From the NCBI GenBank assembly GCA_016181045.1, contig JACPAB010000004.1, positions 1 through 61,722 on the forward strand: a stretch of 61,722 bases of DNA. The letters are read 5' to 3'. Below the pieces are notes generated by a model. The model was not told the origin of the DNA, searched no databases, and worked only from the letters and a program-made list of their open reading frames with translations. This stretch comes from Candidatus Yanofskybacteria bacterium (lineage in GTDB: Bacteria > Patescibacteriota > Minisyncoccia > 2-02-FULL-40-12 > GWA2-44-9). Both the position numbers and the translations under genes were made by a program. Of the stretch, positions 2,503-43,559 are shown in pieces (the stretch's first letter is position 1; every line of letters starts with the position of its first letter).

Positions 2503-4746
2503 CTATTGAGGCCAGGATTCAACGAGAAGTAATTTTTTATTCTTAATCGGCAGTTTCGAGTAAATTTCCTCGGTTACGAACGGCATGAAGGGGTGCAGGA
2601 GCTTCAGCGATGTTGTTAGTATCTCCAAAAGCATCCTTTGGGCCGATATTTTTATGGCCGGGTCTTCGCTGGCTAACTTTGCTTTGCTTTCTTCCACCAC
2701 CTTGTCCGCAAATGCGTGCCAGACATAATGGTATATTTCTTCGGCAGCCAGATATAGCCGGTAGTTTTCCATATGTTCGGTAATGCCTTTGACGAAAACT
2801 CCGAGTTCGGCAAGGATTTTTTTGTCTTCGGGGGCAAGGCAGGCCTCCATTGTGTCCGAAGCGTCATCCGGGACGCTCATTAAAACAAAGCGGGCGATGT
2901 TCCAGAGCTTGTTGGCAAAATGCTTGTAGGCCTTAACCTTGTCAAAACCGAAGTTGCCGTCGTTGCCCGGCGCAATGCCGACCAAGACCGACATTCTTAA
3001 TGCATCCGTTCCGTATTGGTTTATCACGTCGGTCGGCTCTATCCCGTTATCCAAGGACTTGGAGAACTTCCGGCCTTTCGCGTCGCGCAAAATCCCATGC
3101 AGATAGACGGTCTTGAATGGTATCTCTCCCAGCAAAAATCCGCTCATCAGTATCATTCTCGCGACCCAGAAGAAAAGGATCTCATATCCGGGGTTCATGA
3201 ACGTGGTCGGGTGATATGTTTTAAGATCGGATGATTTTTCGTCCGGCCAGCCCAAAGTCGAGAACGTCCAGAGAGCGGAAGAGAACCAAGTGTCCAAGGT
3301 ATCGGGGTCCTGGGTGAACTTTGCGTCGCAAAACTCGCATCCCGGTTCGGTATCGGAAACAACGAATTCTTTGCATTTAACAATATCGTCTTCGTGGCCC
3401 AGCCGAGGGGCACATTTCGGTTCGTGGTGCCAAACCGGAATGCGATGGCCGTACCAAAGCTGGCGGCTTATGTTCCAGTCGCGCAGGTTATCTATCCAGT
3501 GGAAGTATGTTTTTTTGAACCGGTCGGGCAATATCTTTATCTGGTCATTCTCCACGCTCTTCTTCATTATCTCTTTCAGTGTCGTTTTAGAACCGCTCTT
3601 GATATCGCTGATGGAGGACTTTTTAATTTTGAATTCTTTGTTGACCGCGACGAACCACTGAAGTTTTGGCAGAGGTTCTATCGTTCCTCCCGAACGGTCG
3701 GCTATGCTGATGTTAACTTCCGTCTCTTCTTCTTTGGAAAGCAGGTTGTTGTCTCTAAGCCACCGAACAACGATTTCTCTGGCTTCTTTTGTTTTCTTTC
3801 CTTCAACAAGAGAACCGGCCGTATCGGTCATTCTTGCGTATTCGTTTATGACCTGAACCATCGGCAGGTTGTGGCGCTGGGCTATTTCGGAGTCAGTGAT
3901 GCTGTGGGCCGGAGTAACCCCAACGGCACCGGTGCCGAACTCCGGGTCTATCGCTTCATCGGCAACAATTTTTATGTGTAATTTAGTTCCGGCAAACTCA
4001 ACGTCATATTCTTTGCCAATATATTTTTGGTAGCGTTTGTCATCGGGATGGGCGGCTACTGCCGTATCACCGACTTTGGTTTCTGGTCTTGTTGACGCTA
4101 TCTCGATGGGGAAGTCCTTTGAATATCGGAATGTATAAAGAAGCCCTTTTTCCGGCCTATGTTCTACCTCGTCATCAGAAACGGACGTTTGGCCTTTCGG
4201 GTCCCAGTTTATTACCCGATAGCCGCGATATATCAGGCCGGCATCATACATTCTTTTGAATGCGGTGCGGACTGCCAAATTCCGCTGGGCATCCATGGTG
4301 AATGCTTCGCGGGTCCAGTCCAAAGACGCGCCCATCTGGCGTATCTGCTTCTGCATGACGCCCCTGCTTGCGGCGACGAAATCCTCTACTTTTTTTACGA
4401 ACGCTTCACGTCCGATGTCGTGGCGGTTCTTGCCCTCTTCTTTGATGAGTATCTTTTCTACCTTGGTATTTGTGGCGATAGCGGCATGGTCGGTGCCGGG
4501 AACCCAGAGCGTTTTTTCGCCCTTCATCCGGTGGTAGCGGACCACGGCATCCTGGATCGAGTATTCCAGCGCATGTCCCAAGTGGAGCGTTCCGGTGGCG
4601 TTGGGAGGGGGGAGGACGGCGCTGAAAATATCTTTGCGTATTCCCGGTAGATTTTCGGGCGCAAAATACCCGCTATCTTCCCAGAGTTTGTATATTTTAT
4701 CCTCAACTTCTTTTGGGTTGTATGCTTTTGGAAGTTCTGTTGACAT
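2503..4746 (-). CDS. valS: valyl-tRNA synthetase (short form, no C-terminal coiled coil)
   Basis: 747 aa; HIGH-type PPPNATGTLHLGHA, KMSKS-type KFSKSLDN, CP1 editing motifs TRPETKVGDTAVAAHP and GTGAVGVTPAH. Confidence 0.92.
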   Translation of the reverse strand: MSTELPKAYNPKEVEDKIYKLWEDSGYFAPENLPGIRKDIFSAVLPPPNATGTLHLGHALEYSIQDAVVRYHRMKGEKTLWVPGTDHAAIATNTKVEKILIKEEGKNRHDIGREAFVKKVEDFVAASRGVMQKQIRQMGASLDWTREAFTMDAQRNLAVRTAFKRMYDAGLIYRGYRVINWDPKGQTSVSDDEVEHRPEKGLLYTFRYSKDFPIEIASTRPETKVGDTAVAAHPDDKRYQKYIGKEYDVEFAGTKLHIKIVADEAIDPEFGTGAVGVTPAHSITDSEIAQRHNLPMVQVINEYARMTDTAGSLVEGKKTKEAREIVVRWLRDNNLLSKEEETEVNISIADRSGGTIEPLPKLQWFVAVNKEFKIKKSSISDIKSGSKTTLKEIMKKSVENDQIKILPDRFKKTYFHWIDNLRDWNISRQLWYGHRIPVWHHEPKCAPRLGHEDDIVKCKEFVVSDTEPGCEFCDAKFTQDPDTLDTWFSSALWTFSTLGWPDEKSSDLKTYHPTTFMNPGYEILFFWVARMILMSGFLLGEIPFKTVYLHGILRDAKGRKFSKSLDNGIEPTDVINQYGTDALRMSVLVGIAPGNDGNFGFDKVKAYKHFANKLWNIARFVLMSVPDDASDTMEACLAPEDKKILAELGVFVKGITEHMENYRLYLAAEEIYHYVWHAFADKVVEESKAKLASEDPAIKISAQRMLLEILTTSLKLLHPFMPFVTEEIYSKLPIKNKKLLLVESWPQ

Positions 4747-13671: not shown

Positions 13672-15387
13672 ATGATAAAGCGTTGGCTCAAAGATAAAAT
13701 CCAAGAATATTATCCGGATTCGGAGTTCGATGTTCTGACTCCGCCGGACGATAAGATGGGGGATTATTCGGTCAACCTTGCTTTTGTGTTGGCAAAGAAG
13801 AACGGAACCAGCCCTGCCGAAGAAGGAGAGGAATTGGCGGCCGGATTAAGCAAAGATAAAGACCTTGCCGATGTTTTTGAAAAAATAGAAGCGGTAAAGC
13901 CGGGGTTTGTTAATTTTTTCTTGAAAAAAGAGTTTCTCCAGAAGCAACTGGTGAAAATTTATAAAAAACGCGATTCGTTCGGCAAGTCAAAAATTGGAAA
14001 TGGAAAAACTGTGATAGTAGAATATTCTTCACCCAATATCGCCAAACCGATGCATATTGGACATCTTCGCTCCACTATTATCGGTGACGCCCTTGCGAAT
14101 GTTTACGAAGCGCTTGGCTACAAAGTTATCCGCTGGAATTACATCGGGGACTGGGGGACGCAGTTTGGGAACCTTATCGCGGCTTATAAATTGTGGGGCA
14201 ATAAAGATGACTTAAAAAATAGTCCATTCACAACCTTGTTTAATCTGTATGTAAGATTTCACAACGAATTAAAAAATAACCCCGACCTTGAATCACGCGG
14301 TAGAGAAGAATTTAAAAAATTAGAAAATGATGACAAAGAAAACCTAAAATTGTGGGAAAGAATAAAAGACCTGTCTCTTAAGGAGCTAGGTATTTTAGTT
14401 TATCCGAGTATTGGGGTTGATGTAAAACGATTGCATTTTAAGGGAGAGAGCGATTATCAAAATAAGTTGAAGCTACTTATTGATAATTTAGCAAAAAATA
14501 ATATTGCAAAAGAGAGTGAGGGAGCTCTTATAATTGACTTAGAGAAATATGGTCTACCACCAGCTCTGCTCCGCAAATCTGATGGTACGACCCTGTATTT
14601 CACTCGCGATTTAGCGAGTTTAGAAGATCGTATTCAGAACTATCACGCTAATAAAATTCTTTATGTTGTTGCCAACCAACAAACACTTCATTTCGAGCAG
14701 TTATTTGCTGTTGCTAAGGATTTAAAAATTGACGGCGCTGAATTGGTGCATGTTAAATTCGGTATGGTTTTAGGCGAGGATGGCAAAAAACTCGCAACAC
14801 GTGAAGGAAAAGTAGTTCCACTTCAGGATGTTGTTAATAAAATTCAAGAGAAAGCCTATGGCATAGTTAAGCACGTGAAATTTGCCAACAAAGATATTAG
14901 CGAAGACGAAGCACAAAATATTGCTCGCGCAGTCGGCATCGGTGCGTTGAAATATAACGATCTCAAACAGCATCCCTATTCGGATATCGTATTTGATTGG
15001 GATGCGATGCTTGATTTTTCGGGCAACAGCGGGCCATATCTCCAATATACCTATGCCCGGCTGGCAAATATTCTTGAGAAAGTGGAAAACCAGAAAGAGG
15101 GTAATGCCGCGCTTCTTGTGGAGCCGGAGGAGGAAAAAGTAATGAAGCGGCTTCTGGAGTTTCCGGAGGCGATTGAAAAATGCGTGGAGCTGAACACTCT
15201 CAATGGTCTCGCTTTATATCTCTATGAACTTTCCAATGACGCCAACCGATTCTATGAATCAGTTCGTGTTCTTGATGACGATAATATTGAACGTCGCGAT
15301 ACCCGATTAACTTTAATTCAGGCAGTTGCGACAGTGCTAAAAAGGGGACTTAATCTACTTGGAATAGAAGCTTTAGAAAGGATTTAG
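13672..15387 (+). CDS. argS: arginyl-tRNA synthetase
   Basis: 571 aa; SSPNIAKPMHIGHLRSTIIGD (HIGH region), DALK-type anticodon-binding C-terminus. Confidence 0.92.
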   Translation: MIKRWLKDKIQEYYPDSEFDVLTPPDDKMGDYSVNLAFVLAKKNGTSPAEEGEELAAGLSKDKDLADVFEKIEAVKPGFVNFFLKKEFLQKQLVKIYKKRDSFGKSKIGNGKTVIVEYSSPNIAKPMHIGHLRSTIIGDALANVYEALGYKVIRWNYIGDWGTQFGNLIAAYKLWGNKDDLKNSPFTTLFNLYVRFHNELKNNPDLESRGREEFKKLENDDKENLKLWERIKDLSLKELGILVYPSIGVDVKRLHFKGESDYQNKLKLLIDNLAKNNIAKESEGALIIDLEKYGLPPALLRKSDGTTLYFTRDLASLEDRIQNYHANKILYVVANQQTLHFEQLFAVAKDLKIDGAELVHVKFGMVLGEDGKKLATREGKVVPLQDVVNKIQEKAYGIVKHVKFANKDISEDEAQNIARAVGIGALKYNDLKQHPYSDIVFDWDAMLDFSGNSGPYLQYTYARLANILEKVENQKEGNAALLVEPEEEKVMKRLLEFPEAIEKCVELNTLNGLALYLYELSNDANRFYESVRVLDDDNIERRDTRLTLIQAVATVLKRGLNLLGIEALERI

Positions 15388-16380: not shown

Positions 16381-19296
16381 ATGGCTGAATTCAACTTTAA
16401 CGAGAAAGAAAAGAAAGTACTGGATTTCTGGGAGAATAGGAAGATATTCGATAAATCACAGGAAATTCGCAAAAAGGCGAAGCGTTTTGTTTTTTTTGAA
16501 GGCCCTCCGACCGCGAACGGCTTGCCCGGCATCCACCATTTTCTGGGCCGGGCCTACAAAGATCTCTTTTGCCGCTACAAGACAATGCGCGGATATTTTG
16601 TTTTGCGCAAAGCGGGCTGGGACACTCACGGATTGCCGGTTGAGATAGAAGTCGAAAAAGAACTTGGGTTCAAGAACAAGAAAGACATCGAGCGATACGG
16701 CATAGACAAGTTCAACAAGAAGGCCAAGGAGAGCGTCTGGAAATATAAGAACGAATGGGAGCAGATGACGAAAAGAATGGGCTTCTGGCTCGATATGAGC
16801 GACCCCTATATCACATACAAGAACCAATACATTGAATCGCTCTGGGCGATAATCAAGAAGATTTGGGACAAAAAACTGCTTTTTCTCGCTCATCGGGTTG
16901 TGCATTTCTGCACGAGGTGCGGTACGCCGTTATCGTCGCACGAAGTAGCGCAAGGATACCGCACAATAACTGACAGGTCAGTTATTGTGAAATTCCAAAT
17001 TACAAATGACAAATTACAAAAAAATTTCAAAATCCAAAATCCAAATGCCAAAACTTATATTCTTGCGTGGACAACCACGCCGTGGACGTTGCCCGGGAAT
17101 GTTGCTTTGGCGGTTGGGAAAGATATTGATTATGCGGTTGTCGAATTGAATGGAGAAAACCTTATTTTAGCCAAAGATTTAGTAGAAAAAGTTTTTGGAT
17201 CTATAACCTATAACCTAAAACCTATAACCTACAAAGGTTCTGACCTCATTGGCCTGGAATATGAGCCGTTATTTGATATTGAAAAGTTAAAGTCGGAAAA
17301 CTCATACAGAATTTACGACGCCGACTTTGTTTCCACTCAAGAAGGCACTGGCGTCGTCCACACCGCGGTGATGTATGGAGAAGACGATTATGACTTGGGA
17401 ACTAAAATCGGTTTGCCTAAATTCCATACCGTAGATGAGCAAGGGAGATTTATTGGTGTTAGCAAAGAATTGGACGGCAGATATGTTAAAGATCCCGAAA
17501 CCGAAGAATTGATAATTGCAAAATTGAAAATTGAAAATTTAGTGTTCAAAATCGAAGATTTTGAACACGAGTATCCTTTCTGCTGGAGATGCGATACGCC
17601 GCTTTTATATTACGCCAAGGAATCCTGGTTTATAAAAATGTCGGCGATAAACAAGGAACTGCTCAAGAACAACCGGAAAATAAACTGGGTGCCGGAGCAT
17701 ATCAAAGACGGAAGATTCGGCCAGTGGCTGAAAGAGGGGAAGGACTGGGCCTTCTCACGGGAAAGATATTGGGGCACTCCTTTACCGATATGGAAGTGCG
17801 GTGATTGCGGAGATTTTACATTGGCGGGGTCGTTGGAAGACCTGGAAAAGAACAGATACAAGCCGAAGAACGAGTTTTATATTTTGCGGCACGGCCACAG
17901 CGAGAAGAACGGCAACGGTAAATGGGCTGAAATAATAAGTTCCCAGTTGAAAAACGATAAATATCATCTGACCGAAGACGGCAAGAAACAGGCAAAAGGG
18001 GTAACAAAGAAATTAAAAAAACTGGGCAAGCCGGACCTGATAATCTCGTCGCCGTTCAAAAGAACCAAAGAAACCGCGCACCTGGTCGCGGAGGCGTTCG
18101 GTCTGAAGGTCAGTATCGACGAGAGGATAGGTGAGTTTAACCACGGCTCGATATGCGAAGGCAGGACCAGCCATGTTTGCGGTTTGGAAAAAGAGCCGCG
18201 AAAATGGGACACCAAATACGGCGATGAAGAAAGCTGGGCGGACCTGCGCCGAAGGATGTCGCAGGCATTGAGAGACATCGATTCCAAGCACGAAGGCAAG
18301 AGGATACTTTTGGTAAGCCACGGCGACCCGATCTGGATATTGGAGACGTTCACTCTCGGACTGACCAAAGAAGAGGCCGTTCCGACAAGAGAAGAGTTAT
18401 ATCCGGCACAAGGAGAACTCAAGAAATTCGAGCTGAAAAACTGGCCGTATGATGACGACGGCGAATTAGATATGCACCGGCCGTACATAGATCAGATAGC
18501 GCTGAAGTGTCAGAAGTGCGGAGGCAAGATGGCAAAGATACCGGACCTGATAGATGTCTGGTTCGACTCCGGGGCGATGCCCTATGCTCAATGGCACTGG
18601 CCGTTCGAGAACCAAAAGACATTCAAGGAACAATTCCCGGCAGATTTCATTGCGGAGGGAATAGACATGACAAGAGGGTGGTTTTATACTTTGCTATCCG
18701 TAGCCACTCTTTTGGGAAAAGGCGCACCGTATAAGAATGTAATTTCCTACAGCCATGTATTGGACGATAAGGGCCAGAAAATGTCCAAGTCGAAAGGAAA
18801 TACCGTTTCTCCTTTTGCGGTGATGGAAAAGTTCGGCGCCGACGCGCCCCGGTGGTATTTCTATGCGGTTAACGAACCGGGGGACTATAAATTATTCAAC
18901 GAGAAGGATGTCGAGACCAAACTGAAAGGATTTTTCGGCACGCTTGATAACTGTGTCAGATTTTATGAATTATACTCGTCCGAAGAAGGATTTAAGATTT
19001 ACGATTTAAGATCTACGAATCTGTTAGACAAATGGATTTTGTCAAAATTTTACGGCCTTGTTTCAAATGTTTCCGTAAATCTTGATAAGTATGAACCCAC
19101 GTCGGCGGCAAGGGCGGTTGAGAAATTTGTTGTCGAGGACCTGTCTAACTGGTGGTTGAGGCGGTCTCGCAAGAGGAAAGACGCCCTGGGACTTTTGAGG
19201 TTTGTTCTGCTTGAACTTGCTAAAGTTATTGCTCCTTTCACGCCCCAAAGCCGGGACCGAAAGCGTTCACTTGCACGACTGGCCGAAGGTAAATAA
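16381..19296 (+). CDS. ileS: isoleucyl-tRNA synthetase, main body; reading frame breaks near 19245
   Basis: PPTANGLPGIHHFLGRAYKD (HIGH), WTTTPWTLPGN (editing), KMSKSKGN, zinc knuckles; the last 16 residues (QSRDRKRSLARLAEGK) look out of frame. Confidence 0.9.
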   Translation: MAEFNFNEKEKKVLDFWENRKIFDKSQEIRKKAKRFVFFEGPPTANGLPGIHHFLGRAYKDLFCRYKTMRGYFVLRKAGWDTHGLPVEIEVEKELGFKNKKDIERYGIDKFNKKAKESVWKYKNEWEQMTKRMGFWLDMSDPYITYKNQYIESLWAIIKKIWDKKLLFLAHRVVHFCTRCGTPLSSHEVAQGYRTITDRSVIVKFQITNDKLQKNFKIQNPNAKTYILAWTTTPWTLPGNVALAVGKDIDYAVVELNGENLILAKDLVEKVFGSITYNLKPITYKGSDLIGLEYEPLFDIEKLKSENSYRIYDADFVSTQEGTGVVHTAVMYGEDDYDLGTKIGLPKFHTVDEQGRFIGVSKELDGRYVKDPETEELIIAKLKIENLVFKIEDFEHEYPFCWRCDTPLLYYAKESWFIKMSAINKELLKNNRKINWVPEHIKDGRFGQWLKEGKDWAFSRERYWGTPLPIWKCGDCGDFTLAGSLEDLEKNRYKPKNEFYILRHGHSEKNGNGKWAEIISSQLKNDKYHLTEDGKKQAKGVTKKLKKLGKPDLIISSPFKRTKETAHLVAEAFGLKVSIDERIGEFNHGSICEGRTSHVCGLEKEPRKWDTKYGDEESWADLRRRMSQALRDIDSKHEGKRILLVSHGDPIWILETFTLGLTKEEAVPTREELYPAQGELKKFELKNWPYDDDGELDMHRPYIDQIALKCQKCGGKMAKIPDLIDVWFDSGAMPYAQWHWPFENQKTFKEQFPADFIAEGIDMTRGWFYTLLSVATLLGKGAPYKNVISYSHVLDDKGQKMSKSKGNTVSPFAVMEKFGADAPRWYFYAVNEPGDYKLFNEKDVETKLKGFFGTLDNCVRFYELYSSEEGFKIYDLRSTNLLDKWILSKFYGLVSNVSVNLDKYEPTSAARAVEKFVVEDLSNWWLRRSRKRKDALGLLRFVLLELAKVIAPFTPQSRDRKRSLARLAEGK
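17872..18462 (+). other. histidine-phosphatase (PGAM-like) domain inserted inside IleRS
   Basis: EFYILRHGHSEKN (RHG motif), SSPFKRTKETA, LLVSHGDPIWIL (second His); lies between WKCGDCGD...LEDLEK and LDMHRPYIDQ...DVWFDSG of IleRS. Confidence 0.75.
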
Positions 19297-19822
19297 GAAG
19301 CTGATAGATAAAGAGCTGGAGAAACAAATGGAGGAAGTTCAGAATATTGTCACCCTGGGCCTGGCTCAAAGAAAAGAAAAGCAGATAAAAGTCCGTCAGC
19401 CGTTAAGGTCGGTATATTTGGGACTTTCAAATGAATTTCCGAAAGATTTGGAGGTTTTGATGAAGGGTGAGCTTAATGTAAAAGAAATTGTTTATGATAA
19501 GGGTCAGAAAGAATTGGTTGTCCTGAACACAGAACTTGATGAGGCGTTAATTCATGAGGGCTATGCCAGGGAACTGATGCGCCAGATACAGGATATGAGA
19601 AAAGAAGCCAAATATCGCTTAGATGAAAAAGTATTTGGGCAATGGCATAGCGAAAACGAGGAAGTGAACCTTGTTTTGAAAAGTTGGGAGGGGCAGATAA
19701 AAGACGAAACACTGCTGAAAAACTTGGAGAATTATCCCAAGGACAACAAGAATTATGATGTCGAAAAAGAATTCGAACTTTCTCCCGGAAAAAAGATTTG
19801 GCTAGGCCTTTGGCAAAAATAA
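19202..19822 (+). CDS. ileS: isoleucyl-tRNA synthetase C-terminal segment in the +1 frame
   Basis: From about 19250 the +1 frame reads PKAGTESVHLHDWP...VRQPL, the conserved IleRS C-terminal region; the N-terminal part of this track ORF is overlap only. Confidence 0.75.
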   Translation: MFCLNLLKLLLLSRPKAGTESVHLHDWPKVNKKLIDKELEKQMEEVQNIVTLGLAQRKEKQIKVRQPLRSVYLGLSNEFPKDLEVLMKGELNVKEIVYDKGQKELVVLNTELDEALIHEGYARELMRQIQDMRKEAKYRLDEKVFGQWHSENEEVNLVLKSWEGQIKDETLLKNLENYPKDNKNYDVEKEFELSPGKKIWLGLWQK

Positions 19823-19823
19823 T

Positions 19824-20300
19824 ATGGCTAAAATAGTTTTGATTGGTGGTTCTCCAACAGCAGGAAAAAGTTATACAGCGAGAAGACTTGCTGAAGAATT
19901 AAAATTGCCGTGGATTTCCACCGACACTATCAGAGAACAAATGAGATGGATTGTCCGAAAGGAAGATTATCCTGATGCATTTCACCATTTTATAGAAACT
20001 GGTCCAGATAAGGCAGTTGAATATTTAACACATCACACGGCACAAGAAATAGTTGACCACCAAAATCAAGAAAGTGCGGAAATCTGGAAAGGGGTAAGGG
20101 GTATTATTGAAGGAGATTATGCATGGGGCGACTTTATTGTGGAAGGTGTGGCTATTTTACCTAAGTTAGTGGCAAACCAAGAATGGAAAATTAAAAAAGA
20201 AATAAAAGCGATTTTTCTCATCGATGAAGACAAAGATAGGGTAAGGAATACCATCTTTACTCGCGGCTTATGGGATGAGGCCAATGCTTATCCCAGATAA
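19824..20300 (+). CDS. P-loop NTPase/kinase (2-phosphoglycerate-kinase-like), apparently truncated
   Basis: IVLIGGSPTAGKSYTARRLAEELKLPWISTDTIRE Walker A; the ORF ends where a +1-frame ORF continues. Confidence 0.6.
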   Translation: MAKIVLIGGSPTAGKSYTARRLAEELKLPWISTDTIREQMRWIVRKEDYPDAFHHFIETGPDKAVEYLTHHTAQEIVDHQNQESAEIWKGVRGIIEGDYAWGDFIVEGVAILPKLVANQEWKIKKEIKAIFLIDEDKDRVRNTIFTRGLWDEANAYPR

Positions 20301-20441: not shown

Positions 20442-20837
20442 ATGGCCGAAACTACAACAACCGAATTTTCGTTTATTCTTAAGCCATCCGAACATGGTAT
20501 TGGTGTTTTTGCGGTCCATGATATTAAAGCGGGGACTTATCTTCGGTTGTTTGCTGGTGAAACTGAATTAACCGACAGGTCGGTAAAACGGAATAAGAAG
20601 GATGTGCCAGAATTTTTCAGACAATATTGTGTGGATAGGGGTGAAATCCTAATGTGTCCGCAAGACTTTGGCCACATGGAGCTTGGTTGGCATCTTAATC
20701 ATTCCAAAATGCCGAATGCTTATCATAAAAATTATGATTATTACGCTCTAAGAGATATTAAAGAAGGAGAAGAAATAACCGTAGACTACAACTTCCTTGA
20801 AGAACCCGAAGAGGCAAAAGAAGATTATTATAAATGA
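20442..20837 (+). CDS. SET-domain protein (putative lysine methyltransferase)
   Basis: 131 aa; GVFAVHDIKAGTYL, LNHSKMPNAY, LRDIKEGEEITVDYNF fit the SET core. Confidence 0.7.
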   Translation: MAETTTTEFSFILKPSEHGIGVFAVHDIKAGTYLRLFAGETELTDRSVKRNKKDVPEFFRQYCVDRGEILMCPQDFGHMELGWHLNHSKMPNAYHKNYDYYALRDIKEGEEITVDYNFLEEPEEAKEDYYK

Positions 20838-21388
20838 GAACTAAAGCGATAATAATCAAGAAACAGCCGACGAACGAATATGACGAGCTCATAACTTGCT
20901 ACACGCAGGAGTTCGGCAAGCTCACGGCGGTGGCTAAAAGCGTTTTGAAGGGCAGTTCAATGCAGGGCATGCACCTGGATAATTTGAATTTGGTTGATTT
21001 TGAATTGATAAACGGCCGCTCGCTTCCGATAATCGCTGCCGCCCAAGCCGAAAGATCATTCGTAAATCTTAAATCTAATATCCGTCTGCTGGCCGTGGCC
21101 CAATTTTTCATGGATGTGGCGGATAAAATGGTTTTCGACTTACAGAAAGACGAATCGCTTTGGAATTTCATGTCCGGCGTGCTCGAAAAGCTGGACAACC
21201 GCGTCCGTCCGGAGAACGCTTTGACATTTTTGCGGCAGCAGCAATTTTACCTACTAAAGGTCTTGGGCTATGGGTCTCCAAGGTTCGACCTTGGAAAAGA
21301 AAGGTCGAACCTTGATACTGAATTTGAGTATGCTTTGGGCGCTCGTTTAAGGTCGCTCGATTTTATATATTCTGTGTTAAAATATTAA
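20834..21388 (+). CDS. recO: DNA repair protein RecO (short)
   Basis: MRTKAIIIKKQPTNEYDELITCYTQEFGKLTAVAKSVLKGSS OB-fold N-terminus typical of RecO. Confidence 0.75.
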   Translation: MRTKAIIIKKQPTNEYDELITCYTQEFGKLTAVAKSVLKGSSMQGMHLDNLNLVDFELINGRSLPIIAAAQAERSFVNLKSNIRLLAVAQFFMDVADKMVFDLQKDESLWNFMSGVLEKLDNRVRPENALTFLRQQQFYLLKVLGYGSPRFDLGKERSNLDTEFEYALGARLRSLDFIYSVLKY

Positions 21389-34198: not shown

Positions 34199-35329
34199 AT
34201 GTCTCAAATAACAATCAAATCAGAAGAAGAGAAAAAGATTATAAAATCTTTAAGCAATAGGAGCGACACCGAAGCTCAAAGAATTAAGCGGTTTTTGGCT
34301 ATGCCCGATTTGTCGCGCACAGAAGGAAGTCCGCTTAAAGAAATAGTTGATCGTGCAATGCAAACAAAAAGCTTGGAAGGCTTTGATGTGGTTGAAGTTC
34401 CCGAGATCGTTCCAACACATATTTTGTTTGATCTTTTCAATATGCCGGAAGGTCATCCAGCCCGAAGTCCGTCGGATACATATTATGTCGACAATAAAAA
34501 TGTCCTTCGCACTCATGACACGGTTTTTTGGTACTACTACTTGAACGACTCGGTAGTCAAAGAGCGAATTAAAAATAAAGAAACCTTAGGCGTGGTTTGT
34601 TACGGCAAAGTATATCGAAAAGATGAGATCGATCGATCGCATATGAATGTTTTTCATCAGTTTGGCGGACTTTTGATTGCGCCCGATGATGTAAAAACAA
34701 TTACCCCCGATGATTTAAAAAAGGCACTGACGGAAATTGCAAAAAGTATTTTTGGCAATATTAATTTTCGTTTTTATGACCACAACTTTCCGTATACGGA
34801 CCCGAGTTTTGAGATGGAGGCGGAAATTAATGGACGCTGGATTGAGATGTTGGGATCGGGAATGGCCCGCAAAAGTGTGTTGGCAAACTTTGGATTGACG
34901 GGCTATCATGGCTGGGCTTTTGGATTCGGTTTAGAGCGTTTGGCGATGGCTTCTATGGAGTTGCCCGATATCCGGCTACTCTGGTCACAGGATGAAAGAG
35001 TGAAAAAGCAGTTAAAACTCGGCAATAAATTCAAAGAGGTTTCCAAATACCCAGCCATTACCAGAGACATATCGTTTGTGGTGAAAAATGACTTTGTTCC
35101 CAATAATTATTTTGACCTGATAAGGGACTTGGGCGGAGATTTAGTGGAGCAGGTAGAACTATTAGATAAATACGAAAACGCTGAAAAATTCGGAAAGGAC
35201 AAGGTAAGTTACACTTATCGCATTGTTTACCGCTCTAACGAAAGAACTCTTACCACCGAAGAAATAGACCCGATTCAGAACAAAATATACAAACAAACCG
35301 CTATTCAGTTTGGGGCCGAATTGAGATGA
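34199..35329 (+). CDS. pheS: phenylalanyl-tRNA synthetase, single-chain form (PheS catalytic core fused to FDX-ACB domain)
   Basis: Class II motifs HPARSPSDTYY, FPYTDPSFEMEA and GFGLERLAM. C-terminal KYPAITRDISFVV...DLIRDLGGDLVEQVELLDKY...YTYRIVYRSNERTLTTEEI is an FDX-ACB (PheT B8-type) domain. Confidence 0.85.
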   Translation: MSQITIKSEEEKKIIKSLSNRSDTEAQRIKRFLAMPDLSRTEGSPLKEIVDRAMQTKSLEGFDVVEVPEIVPTHILFDLFNMPEGHPARSPSDTYYVDNKNVLRTHDTVFWYYYLNDSVVKERIKNKETLGVVCYGKVYRKDEIDRSHMNVFHQFGGLLIAPDDVKTITPDDLKKALTEIAKSIFGNINFRFYDHNFPYTDPSFEMEAEINGRWIEMLGSGMARKSVLANFGLTGYHGWAFGFGLERLAMASMELPDIRLLWSQDERVKKQLKLGNKFKEVSKYPAITRDISFVVKNDFVPNNYFDLIRDLGGDLVEQVELLDKYENAEKFGKDKVSYTYRIVYRSNERTLTTEEIDPIQNKIYKQTAIQFGAELR

Positions 35330-35411: not shown

Positions 35412-38891
<3,480 letters not shown>

Positions 38892-42107: not shown

Positions 42108-43559
42108 ATGGCAGAAGTAATTGCTCTAGCCGGCTGGCCACCCGAGGTCTTGGCTTATGCTTATGCAATGTATTCTCGTTCCGCCCTTTCTATTAGGGAA
42201 AGCATGTTAAAGATAACCAATGAAAAAGCTTCCGGATTCTTGGATACTTTCTATTTTAAATATAACCACAGATCTATTGCTGATAATGCCCATGTTCCTT
42301 TGGCTATTGAGAATGCTTCCGAGATTGTTGCTTTTGAACTTGAAGACGAACAACTTTGGGATGGTCAGGAAAGGTCGACTCGTTATCAGAATTTTAATAA
42401 GCCCAATGCTTATTTTATTCCGGAAACAGTTAGAAATACTCCGCACGAGAGAGAATATTGTGTTATCGCGGATTTTCTTCTTGGCAAATATGGCGATTAT
42501 AGCTCTCTTTGTTTTGAGTATTTAGCAAAGAAATATTCTAAACCCCCGGAAATGAAAGGTGACGATTATGAGAGAACGCTCAAGGCCAGGGCTTTTGATG
42601 TGGCTCGCTATTGGCTTTTTAACGGGATTCTTACGTCAGTCGGCCAGATTACGAGTGCCAGAACGCTTGAAGACCAGATTTGCCGTCTTATGGCAGCGGA
42701 GTATCTTGAAACTGTTTATGTGGCTAATCAAATGAAGGAAGCGTGTCTGGCAAAGCCATTTTGCCCCGAAGGTAAAAATGAACCGCCAGTTGCGCCGACA
42801 CTGGTCAAGCATGTCAGTCCGAATGGATACGCTGTTCGCATTAGGGAGCTGATGAAAAGGGTGATGAGCGTTTATCTGAGTAATTTCATGTATCCCGGCG
42901 CTTATAATAACTATACAAGGCACGTCAGATTGACCCGTCCTTTTAGAAGTATTCAGCATGAAATAGTAGCCGGATTGGTCTATGAAGCTACTAATCTAAC
43001 CATGAGAGATATCCAAAGCTTTCTTAATAAGATGGAAATTGGAAACGTGAATTGGATTATCGGCCAAGTTCTTGATTTGAGAGAAAAACATGACGCATTG
43101 CCCCGAGCTTTTGCGGCAGGATATGGAATCCAGTTTGACATTTGTATGGATATTGGCGGCAGACGAGATCTGCACCGACATCGAAATTGTATCCAGATAC
43201 ATCAAAAGTTTACTGTTGACCGTGGCTTTGATGTGCCGGAGCTTGTTAGAGAAATGGGCAAGGGAGACGATTTTTCTGACAACATGAAGCATGTTGCCTT
43301 GAGGGTTAGCCAATTAAAACATGCGATAGGAAATAATGCTAACTACCTTATCCCGTTTGCTTTTAGGGCGGGAACTCTTTATAAAATGGATTATCGCCAG
43401 GTTGAGTATATGACGGTTCTTAGGTCAACGCCCCAAGGCCATTTTTCATATCGGGAAGTAGCAGTGGCAATGGATAGACAATTAAGAGAATTAGTCCCCG
43501 GCTTAGAAAAACATTCACGAGTCACGCCTTTTGAGAATGAGGATATATTCAAAAGATAG
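42108..43559 (+). CDS. thyX: FAD-dependent thymidylate synthase ThyX, tandem-domain (pseudo-dimeric) form
   Basis: Two ThyX-like halves. First: HRSIADNAHV...ERSTRY, with the RHR position degenerate. Second: RRDLHRHRNC. ARAFDVARYWLF and YLIPFAF correspond to the ThyX R..LP motif. Confidence 0.7.
   Translation: MAEVIALAGWPPEVLAYAYAMYSRSALSIRESMLKITNEKASGFLDTFYFKYNHRSIADNAHVPLAIENASEIVAFELEDEQLWDGQERSTRYQNFNKPNAYFIPETVRNTPHEREYCVIADFLLGKYGDYSSLCFEYLAKKYSKPPEMKGDDYERTLKARAFDVARYWLFNGILTSVGQITSARTLEDQICRLMAAEYLETVYVANQMKEACLAKPFCPEGKNEPPVAPTLVKHVSPNGYAVRIRELMKRVMSVYLSNFMYPGAYNNYTRHVRLTRPFRSIQHEIVAGLVYEATNLTMRDIQSFLNKMEIGNVNWIIGQVLDLREKHDALPRAFAAGYGIQFDICMDIGGRRDLHRHRNCIQIHQKFTVDRGFDVPELVREMGKGDDFSDNMKHVALRVSQLKHAIGNNANYLIPFAFRAGTLYKMDYRQVEYMTVLRSTPQGHFSYREVAVAMDRQLRELVPGLEKHSRVTPFENEDIFKR

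Follow-up and report, generated by a model that had tools for sequence, protein, structure and literature searches.

Why does the isoleucyl-tRNA synthetase (IleRS), an essential enzyme of protein synthesis, of a very small and uncultivated Candidatus Yanofskybacteria bacterium carry nearly 200 additional residues within its catalytic core, and what might they do there? The ileS gene concerned lies in a stretch of 61,722 nt (contig JACPAB010000004.1), which was analysed as a whole and to which we refer as the window. An earlier note, made from the sequence alone, had placed a complete histidine phosphatase (HP) domain at positions 17872-18462. Pfam searches, AlphaFold2 (AF2) modelling and Foldseek comparisons agree on this point, and both the content of that claim and its coordinates were correct: the insert is a complete HP domain of branch 1, nested in the catalytic core of IleRS. 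Judging from residue conservation and structural models, it is probably an active phosphomonoesterase kept as a partner of IleRS. The nested form seems to represent one arrangement of a long-standing partnership between this HP clade and IleRS in Patescibacteria, also known as the candidate phyla radiation (CPR). The relevant features of the host gene, including its third connective peptide (CP3), are as follows.

16381-19296, forward strand: reading frame of ileS (971 aa), ending at a premature stop (TIGR00392; Pfam tRNA-synt_1 and Anticodon_1)
16528-16539, forward strand: GIHH (aa 50-53), a variant of HIGH, the class-I signature (translation)
17797-17808, forward strand: first CxxC (C473, C476) of the CP3 zinc knuckle (translation; homologue conservation)
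17830-17850, forward strand: helix SLEDLEK, after the first CxxC (translation)
17872-18462, forward strand: nested histidine phosphatase domain (His_Phos_1), aa 498-694 (Pfam; AF2; Foldseek; alignment with the insert-free IleRS of locus L081)
18475-18519, forward strand: return into IleRS with HRPYID, then the second CxxC (C710, C713; 18508-18519) (alignment; translation)
18553-18573, forward strand: DVWFDSG, active-site strand of the second Rossmann-fold half (translation and alignment)
18778-18792, forward strand: KMSKS signature, aa 800-804 (translation)

When the 971-aa open reading frame (ORF) was searched with profile models, as the earlier note had advised, His_Phos_1 and tRNA-synt_1 were both significant. 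His_Phos_1 (PF00300) matched aa 500-664 with an E-value of 1.3e-30 (106.9 bits, cut-off 21.7), and the segment 17872-18462 searched alone gave an E-value of 4.8e-32 and 111.6 bits against the same cut-off. Compared with insert-free IleRSs, the net insertion comprises about aa 491-696. In the alignment with the solved IleRS2 8C8W, query positions 491 to 693 stand opposite chain residues 477 to 483, and in the insert-free IleRS of a related metagenomic lineage (locus L081), which is 55% identical outside the insert, a short stretch (KAKISSEIN) stands opposite about 205 residues of the window IleRS. The figure of roughly 15 residues given previously for other IleRSs is therefore of the right order of magnitude; about 10 were found in L081 and about 6 in the solved IleRS2.

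The insert is located between the two CxxC halves of a single zinc knuckle, and the DVWFDSG strand comes after the second half. In published IleRS structures, the CP3 subdomain links CP2 with the second half of the Rossmann fold (domain layout in PMC7191050). The HP domain is found at the tip of the CP3 zinc hairpin, between SLEDLEK and HRPYID, and all catalytic elements of IleRS are still in place. The four cysteines of the knuckle are kept in 113-116 of 117 full-length homologues, which indicates that the zinc knuckle survived the insertion.

The identity of the host enzyme is clear as well. The ORF scored 811 bits with the isoleucyl-tRNA synthetase equivalog TIGR00392 (cut-off 621) and matched tRNA-synt_1 with an E-value of 7e-116; it contains the Rossmann fold, the CP1 editing domain, CP2, CP3, KMSKS and the beginning of the anticodon-binding domain. 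Its top solved relatives in a PDB sequence search were 8C8W and 1ILE (about E 1e-228, 764 bits each), whereas the IleRS1 structure 8C9F reached only 315 bits, and a DUF5915-type C-terminus is present in the downstream frame in place of the zinc-binding C-terminal domain of IleRS1. By these sequence comparisons, the host is a type-2 (IleRS2 or Thermus-like) IleRS. The IleRS body of the AF2 model superposes on 8C8W and 1ILE (fold search, about E 1e-76). Models for exceptional IleRSs stayed below their cut-offs on the window protein (NF040702, 300 versus 1999 bits; MupA and MupB, NF000257/8, 743 and 733 versus 1900). HIGH and GIHH are split about half and half among the 117 homologues. The GIHH of the window IleRS is the swapped form known from the mupirocin hyper-resistant group of IleRS2.

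The residues on which a phosphatase would depend are listed below.

17887-17895, forward strand: RHG, with R503, H504 (predicted phospho-accepting nucleophile) and G505 (translation; conservation)
18049-18066, forward strand: SPFKRT, aa 557-562, with S557 and R561 (second phosphate-binding Arg) (translation; invariance)
18133-18135, forward strand: E585, predicted general acid/base (invariant in 117 sequences)
18142-18180, forward strand: cap segment HGSICEGRTSHVC with the clade-specific H588, C592 and C600 (homologue conservation)
18253-18255, forward strand: R625, invariant Arg of the GES...R motif (conservation)
18316-18330, forward strand: SHGDP, aa 646-650, with H647, the second catalytic His (translation; invariance)

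The motifs quoted in the earlier note (RHG, SPFKRT and SHGDP) are thus all present, and its impression that the catalytic residues are intact is borne out by comparison: R503, H504, S557, R561, E585, R625 and H647 are invariant among the 117 homologues. In branch-1 histidine phosphatases, the residues of this set bind the phosphate and carry out catalysis; the superfamily motifs, i.e. the RHG nucleophile, the second Arg, the Glu donor and the second His, are represented by R503, H504, R561, E585 and H647. Across the different architectural contexts described below, the HP catalytic set is about 100% conserved (R503 and H504 93-100% per context), and the position of E585 is occupied by E or D in free-standing HPs. 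The insert evolves faster than its host, mean pairwise identity being 45% for the insert and 70% for the IleRS core, and the divergence of the two is correlated (r = 0.52). Judged from the sequences, the residue pattern is that of an enzyme whose chemistry is under purifying selection. In the cap, H588, C592 and C600 are kept in 104, 105 and 106 of the 117 homologues, respectively, which form a Yanofskybacteria-type clade; these residues are not conserved in other Paceibacteria. The cap pattern HGxxCEGKxHxxC, next to the catalytic Glu, could constitute a small metal or disulfide site.

Structure prediction gave a consistent picture. A full-length AF2 model (971 aa), built on the alignment of the 117 sequences, had a mean local confidence (pLDDT) of 86.8 and a predicted template-modelling score (pTM) of 0.82. 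Within this model, the pLDDT of the insert was mostly 90-98, with parts of the cap down to 71-80, and the blocks at the junctions reached 97 (aa 491-500) and 93 (aa 691-700); a rigid mounting is therefore predicted, not a floppy tether. Modelled by itself, the insert had a pLDDT of 92.2. As to whether it folds independently, a question raised in the earlier note, it is, according to these models, an independently folding and confidently predicted alpha/beta domain. Foldseek aligned it with many HP structures (TM 0.69-0.77, probability 1.00), in agreement with the alpha/beta fold of the superfamily. The best matches were compact phosphatases that act on small substrates, namely the phosphoserine phosphatase PspA (4IJ5), the mycobacterial glucosyl-3-phosphoglycerate phosphatase GpgP (Rv2419c), the riboflavin-pathway enzyme HFP (9MMH), EhPSP, CobC, Rv3214 and PhoE, while structures of cofactor-dependent phosphoglycerate mutase (dPGM) and bisphosphoglycerate mutase ranked lower. 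A PDB sequence search with the insert gave the same ranking, with phosphatases above mutases.

The domain had been called PGAM-like and either a phosphatase or a mutase. The assignment as a phosphatase domain holds, but that as a mutase is not supported, as all mutase models remained below their cut-offs: TIGR01258 scored 18.8 versus 81.7 bits, the archaeal model NF038349 93.1 versus 225, and PRK14118 and PRK14120 about 18 versus 366-409. The archaeal short dPGM model (NF038349, 93 bits) was nevertheless the best NCBIfam sub-hit of the insert. In dPGMs, the catalytic Glu begins a substrate-binding motif, E-R-H-Y-G. The insert has E-F-N-H-G in its place and the consensus of the clade is E-[ILFV]-x-H-G, which is PspA-like. 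The PspA equivalog NF045917 was not reached either (69.8 versus 350 bits), although 4IJ5 is the nearest solved structure, and the insert also stayed below the cut-offs of CobC (TIGR03162, 59.8 versus 162.9) and SixA (TIGR00249, 33.7 versus 74.5). Taken together, sequence and model comparisons suggest that the insert is nearer to phosphomonoesterases of the PspA, PhoE, GpgP and CobC kind, its nearest neighbours being small phosphatases, than to mutases. A recent donor was considered and rejected: the nearest free proteins outside the clade linked to aminoacyl-tRNA synthetases (aaRSs), from Halomonas and others, are only 28-36% identical. The neighbourhoods of these free HPs, with phosphonate and amino-acid ABC transporters, provided no lead.

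We then asked how widely the nested form occurs. A word-indexed search with the insert alone missed embedded homologues, which were recovered by an exhaustive profile search. Among the matches listed (58-77% identity), PF00133 and PF00300 were both present in 120 of 120 homologue clusters; in databases, these clusters appear under Candidatus Yanofskybacteria, Paceibacterota and Taylorbacteria, and as 'class I tRNA ligase family protein', 'hypothetical protein' or 'isoleucine-tRNA ligase'. A scan of GTDB, with one genome per species and a single HP peptide pattern, yielded 402 genomes with an HP relative. Among the best 80 of these 402, the HP was embedded in an IleRS frame in all 80, and the titles comprised Yanofsky-, Kaiser-, Specht-, Azam-, Uhr-, Nealson-, Colwell-, Harrison- and Niyogibacteria as well as generic Parcubacteria or Paceibacterota. 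With HP-IleRS carried by hundreds of other assemblies, the match is independent of the window's own assembly, and the nested HP is a lineage-wide architecture of Yanofskybacteria and many other Paceibacteria, not a peculiarity of the window genome. The survey of IleRS architectures proposed earlier thus found HP-IleRS in many Paceibacteria and, in addition, further arrangements in Gracilibacteria and Peregrinibacteria. Nine loci (L001, L003-L005, L054, L059, L061, L070 and L071) were titled Saccharibacteria, Gammaproteobacteria, Binatia or Pacearchaeota; such oddly titled metagenome-assembled genomes with a Paceibacteria-type HP-IleRS are probably taxonomic mislabels or contaminated bins.

The architecture had been described as unfamiliar. 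Full-text literature searching indeed found no published description of HP-IleRS or of the HP-ileS linkage. However, it is not rare, as the 402 GTDB species hits attest, and the sequences are public and machine-annotated, in one instance under the JGI name 'isoleucyl-tRNA synthetase/phosphohistidine phosphatase SixA/...GNAT'. Domain accretion in aaRSs and IleRS with a nested GNAT are already known; HP-IleRS is without a searchable paper.

The same HP clade also occurs in other arrangements. When the insert profile was searched against 1.84 billion representatives, 230 proteins were obtained at E <= 1e-30, the best 150 of which fall into three groups: a) IleRSs whose CP3 knuckle holds the HP, b) free-standing proteins, about 190 aa long, that align with the profile over its entire length (E 1e-35 to 1e-50), and c) larger synthetases that carry HP domains elsewhere. 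Among these best 150, the clade is found almost only inside or beside genes of class-Ia aaRSs, and only of IleRS, ValRS and ArgRS. In a neighbour-joining tree of HP domains, calculated without support values, aaRS-linked HPs stood apart from the outgroup and one large free-standing cluster emerged. The gene order around ileS bears on group b, and the syntenic neighbours in the window are therefore given here.

13672-15387, forward strand: argS (ArgRS), upstream neighbour (Pfam)
20834-21388, forward strand: recO, downstream neighbour (Pfam)

As for group b), the free-standing HP was located directly upstream of an insert-less ileS in six of seven look-ups, the two genes overlapping by 10 nt in L081 and being 1-10 nt apart in L084, L085, L087, L091 and L092; the seventh directly follows argS. 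The order argS-HP-ileS-(small ORF)-recO was found in most of the six ileS-linked loci, and the window itself has argS...ileS...recO. An argS neighbour accompanied the free-standing HP in L081, L084, L087, L091 and L093, and recO lies downstream, as in the window, in L081, L084, L085, L091 and L092. The IleRSs behind the free-standing HPs belong to three subtypes (EGPP[TF]ANG/..WFDSG, GPPFATG/CWFESGS and GPITANN/NPWLDAG), so the linkage is not bound to one IleRS lineage. No second HP of the clade was found near the embedded form in 80 loci or in the 61.7-kb window; within this sample, embedded and adjacent forms exclude each other. A more distant free-standing HP of Patescibacteria (P0153, locus L089) lies about 3.5 kb from an IleRS gene on the opposite strand, which may be a remnant of linkage or a coincidence.

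As for group c), a homology search with one member placed the hosts in Gracilibacteria, Peregrinibacteria and Peribacteria. The HP domains follow the WF[DE]SG strand, occupy the variable loop of the anticodon-binding domain, or stand in tandem within the knuckle, with up to three copies per IleRS. P0184 and P0297 are ValRS-like, and a ValRS-like protein contains four tandem or nested HP domains. One protein, P0209, is an ArgRS with a C-terminal HP, and this fusion fits the gene order argS-HP-ileS. Besides HP, IleRSs of 1200-1860 aa (P0338-P0423) harbour nested GNAT, HAD phosphatase, P-loop kinase (AAA_18/AAA_33), DUF559, serine-hydrolase and Zeta-toxin-like domains, and NCBI curates a family NF040702, 'IleRS, N-acetyltransferase domain-containing'. 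The region from CP3 to beyond WFESG is an insertion hot spot of IleRS.

The window's own copy of ileS is not intact, as can be seen from two further features.

19240-19250, forward strand: ileS break point, about 13 codons missing and the frame shifted (sequence; alignment with homologues)
19247-19822, forward strand: remaining ileS C-terminus, 192 residues, in the +1 frame (translation; Pfam DUF5915 and Anticodon_1 on ORF 19202-19822)

Full-length homologues have 1150-1200 aa, compared with 971 aa for the window ORF, and no uninterrupted full-length IleRS frame exists in the window. The frame is broken near 19246, about 780 nt downstream of the insert, and frame 0 runs to a stop at 19294-19296. 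Homologues read APFTPF.AEDIH.RLH.G...SVHLHDWPK at this point; the window has APFTP, followed by KAGTESVHLHDWPK in the +1 frame, and the absent codons correspond to FxAEDIHxRLHxG. The deletion may reflect an assembly error or variation within the population, or it may be a genuine lesion of the gene. It leaves the finding of the phosphatase insert unaffected, but the window copy is unfit for expression as it stands.

If the domain is an active phosphomonoesterase, its mechanism can be sketched by analogy with the superfamily. H504 would attack a terminal phosphoryl group held by R503, R561, H647 and R625; E585 would protonate the leaving group, and the phospho-histidine would be hydrolysed afterwards. 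We found no evidence for the hydrolysis of Ap4A that had been suggested earlier; the superfamily acts on terminal phosphoryl groups. The selected property would be an enzymatic activity delivered with IleRS, in the same amount and at the same place. Because the position of the HP varies while its catalytic residues stay constant, such co-delivery is most likely what selection has maintained, and a geometry-dependent step of aminoacylation, or a fixed relay between the two active sites, seems unlikely. The occurrence of nested, adjacent, ArgRS-fused and multi-copy forms, together with the mutual exclusion of embedded and adjacent ones, speaks strongly, on comparative grounds, for a functional partnership with IleRS. 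Several observations weigh against it. The window's ileS is interrupted by the frameshift. The insert reaches none of the curated equivalog cut-offs (PspA, CobC, GpmB, dPGM, SixA), and the cap region, which usually shapes specificity, is not conserved between lineages, so that more than one substrate is perhaps involved. The domains nested in related CPR IleRSs are of widely differing kinds (GNAT, HAD, P-loop kinase, DUF559, serine hydrolase), which fits IleRS as a permissive carrier and weakens a specific functional link. Finally, close relatives without any HP exist (P0400, P0402 and P0404), and HP is therefore dispensable for IleRS itself.

Other explanations have to be set against this. 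That the insert is an assembly chimera, or a recent insertion private to the window genome, can be dismissed: the frameshifting deletion downstream does indicate that this assembly or gene copy is not flawless, but the same join, with the same residues, is shared by at least 117 protein clusters and by all 80 species genomes examined, which derive from many projects, and the divergence of the insert tracks that of its host. The chimeric join named in the earlier note as a possible refutation is hence contradicted by its conservation in many independent assemblies. A non-catalytic role, as a regulator that senses phosphate or nucleotides or as an extra surface for binding tRNA or protein, is highly improbable. 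HP-fold domains without a clear enzymatic role do occur elsewhere, for example in TFIIIC tau55, and the predicted rigid packing on CP3 would suit such a module; yet the catalytic residues, with the general acid E585 among them, do not vary in any context, a constancy that would be needless for mere binding, and the charge is not consistently basic. The suggestion that a metabolic enzyme hitch-hikes in IleRS remains a rival, although a quite doubtful one. According to it, a dPGM or another housekeeping phosphatase (e.g. phosphoserine phosphatase) has lodged in an essential, constitutive gene of a reduced genome without any mechanistic link to IleRS. The archaeal dPGM model as best sub-hit, the many unrelated enzymes nested in CPR IleRSs and the lack of any other HP of the clade in the window or the 80 loci are all compatible with it. 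Phosphoglycerate mutase, moreover, is reported as undetected in several Parcubacteria clades by Jaffe et al. (PMC7304191). The rival is weakened by the near-exclusive occurrence of the clade inside or beside class-Ia aaRS genes; this strict linkage and the two to four copies per synthetase are hard to square with a glycolytic enzyme. The failure of every mutase model, the PspA-like motif in place of that of dPGM, and the rank of phosphatases above mutases in both sequence and fold searches speak against it as well.

A further rival, for which the odds are low, is that the tethered HP guards the aminoacylation system by stripping a blocking phosphate from a molecule or residue that enters or belongs to the active site of IleRS. 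Candidate targets would be a tRNA 3' end with a 2'/3'-phosphate, cyclic phosphate or pyrophosphate, a phosphorylated inhibitor resembling the adenylate, or an inhibitory phosphoserine of the synthetase, for example in the KMSKS loop. RelA-SpoT-type toxins pyrophosphorylate the CCA ends of tRNAs, and HipA/HipT kinases phosphorylate aaRSs. Confinement of the clade to class-Ia aaRSs, the adjacency of CP3 to the DVWFDSG strand of the synthetic site and the rigid junctions predicted would all agree with such a role; the nearest solved HP relatives hydrolyse free phosphoserine, and the other enzymes nested in CPR IleRSs (GNAT, kinase, HAD, hydrolase) belong to classes that modify small molecules. 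On the other hand, the insertion site is not fixed, there being three sites and a separate-gene form, and histidine phosphatases are not known to act on RNA ends. An RNA-binding signature was looked for and rejected, since the isoelectric points (median 6-9 by class) and net charges of the HP domains are not consistently basic; a link with defence systems was likewise rejected, as PADLOC gave no match for the insert or the small neighbouring ORFs. By extension, it is conceivable, if rather unlikely, that IleRS, and sometimes ValRS and ArgRS, is used in CPR as a platform that carries guard enzymes acting in cis from the rim of its synthetic site: the HP described here and, in sister classes, GNAT, HAD phosphatase, P-loop kinase or serine hydrolase. 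If this is true, these enzymes would mend tRNAs with a blocked 3' end, undo inhibitory phosphorylation of the synthetase or break down inhibitors that mimic the adenylate, and the platform would amount to a new layer of repair or immunity integrated into aaRSs, distinct from amino-acid editing.

Aminoacyl-tRNA synthetases are among the most conserved enzymes, and to our knowledge, a catalytic domain of an unrelated superfamily nested in a connective peptide of the Rossmann fold is known in bacteria essentially only as the editing domain. An apparently active phosphatase has here been retained with IleRS over a very large uncultivated bacterial radiation, whether encoded next door, nested once or nested several times; this is the classic Rosetta-stone sign that two functions are linked. 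Should the HP act on tRNA, the synthetase or inhibitors, translation would possess a new form of quality control or self-protection. Should it be a housekeeping enzyme, it could close the reported phosphoglycerate mutase gap in Parcubacteria and would show that reduced genomes park enzymes in essential genes. For IleRS engineering, the insertion points to CP3 as a permissive site.

Some other features of the window should be mentioned. Immediately after ileS, there is a small ORF:

19824-20300: small P-loop ORF, AAA_33-like (Pfam, E 1.8e-5, below the Pfam cut-off), abutting the end of ileS

A PNKP-like pair of kinase and phosphatase was considered on account of this ORF and rejected, as BLAST matched it to nothing in 87 related loci and to none of the kinase domains embedded in IleRSs. 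Between ileS and recO lies a gene for a SET-domain protein of 131 aa (20442-20837), here in a bacterial genome. A ValRS-like class-Ia synthetase on the reverse strand (2503-4746) has only 747 aa, its Anticodon_1 match ending at the C-terminus, and contains no HP insert. At 34199-35329, a single-chain PheRS-like protein of 376 aa combines a class II core F with FDX-ACB, a layout typical of mitochondrial monomeric PheRS and unlike the bacterial alpha2beta2 enzyme. The GyrB gene (35415-38891) is interrupted by an intein (Intein_splicing, aa 482-906) between DNA_gyraseB and Toprim. A ThyX-like ORF of 483 aa (42108-43559), about twice the usual length and with two Thy1 stretches, may be duplicated or fused.

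Several known systems resemble the window protein in part. The IleRS2 of Priestia megaterium (8C8U/8C8W) and the IleRS of Thermus thermophilus (1ILE) share its CP3 zinc knuckle, KMSKS, DUF5915-type C-terminus and GxHH, but have about 6 residues at the site of its domain of about 196 residues. Members of NF040702 (ileS_w_GNAT) are curated IleRSs in which a second enzyme domain is nested in the synthetase, and the GNAT-bearing IleRSs of Gracilibacteria and Peregrinibacteria often have HP domains too; the nested domain that defines this family is, however, GNAT and not HP, and the window protein is not a member. The small branch-1 phosphatases, such as PspA/iPSP1 of H. thermophilus (4IJ5), GpgP of M. 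tuberculosis (Rv2419c, 4PZ9), HFP (9MMH), the PSP of E. histolytica, CobC and PhoE (1H2E), resemble the insert in their compact fold (about 200 aa) and in their catalytic residues, at 20-30% identity, and E-x-x-H-G is common to the insert and PspA. These enzymes are free-standing, and the clade-specific H/C/C pattern of the cap belongs to the insert. A CobC-like HP covalently joined to a nucleic-acid enzyme is found in the RNase H/acid phosphatase of the Rv2228c/RnhC type (PRK07238), the second-best NCBIfam match of the insert with 78 bits (far below the cut-off of 326); there, the HP is fused end to end with RNase H, in contrast to the nested insertion in the window IleRS. The closest precedent in kind for a catalytic insertion into a class-Ia Rossmann fold is the CP1 editing domain, a second catalytic domain that IleRS, ValRS and LeuRS carry in this fold via a zinc-hairpin base. 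CP1 is universal, has an unrelated fold and acts on aminoacyl-tRNA, whereas the HP is restricted to certain lineages and resides in CP3.

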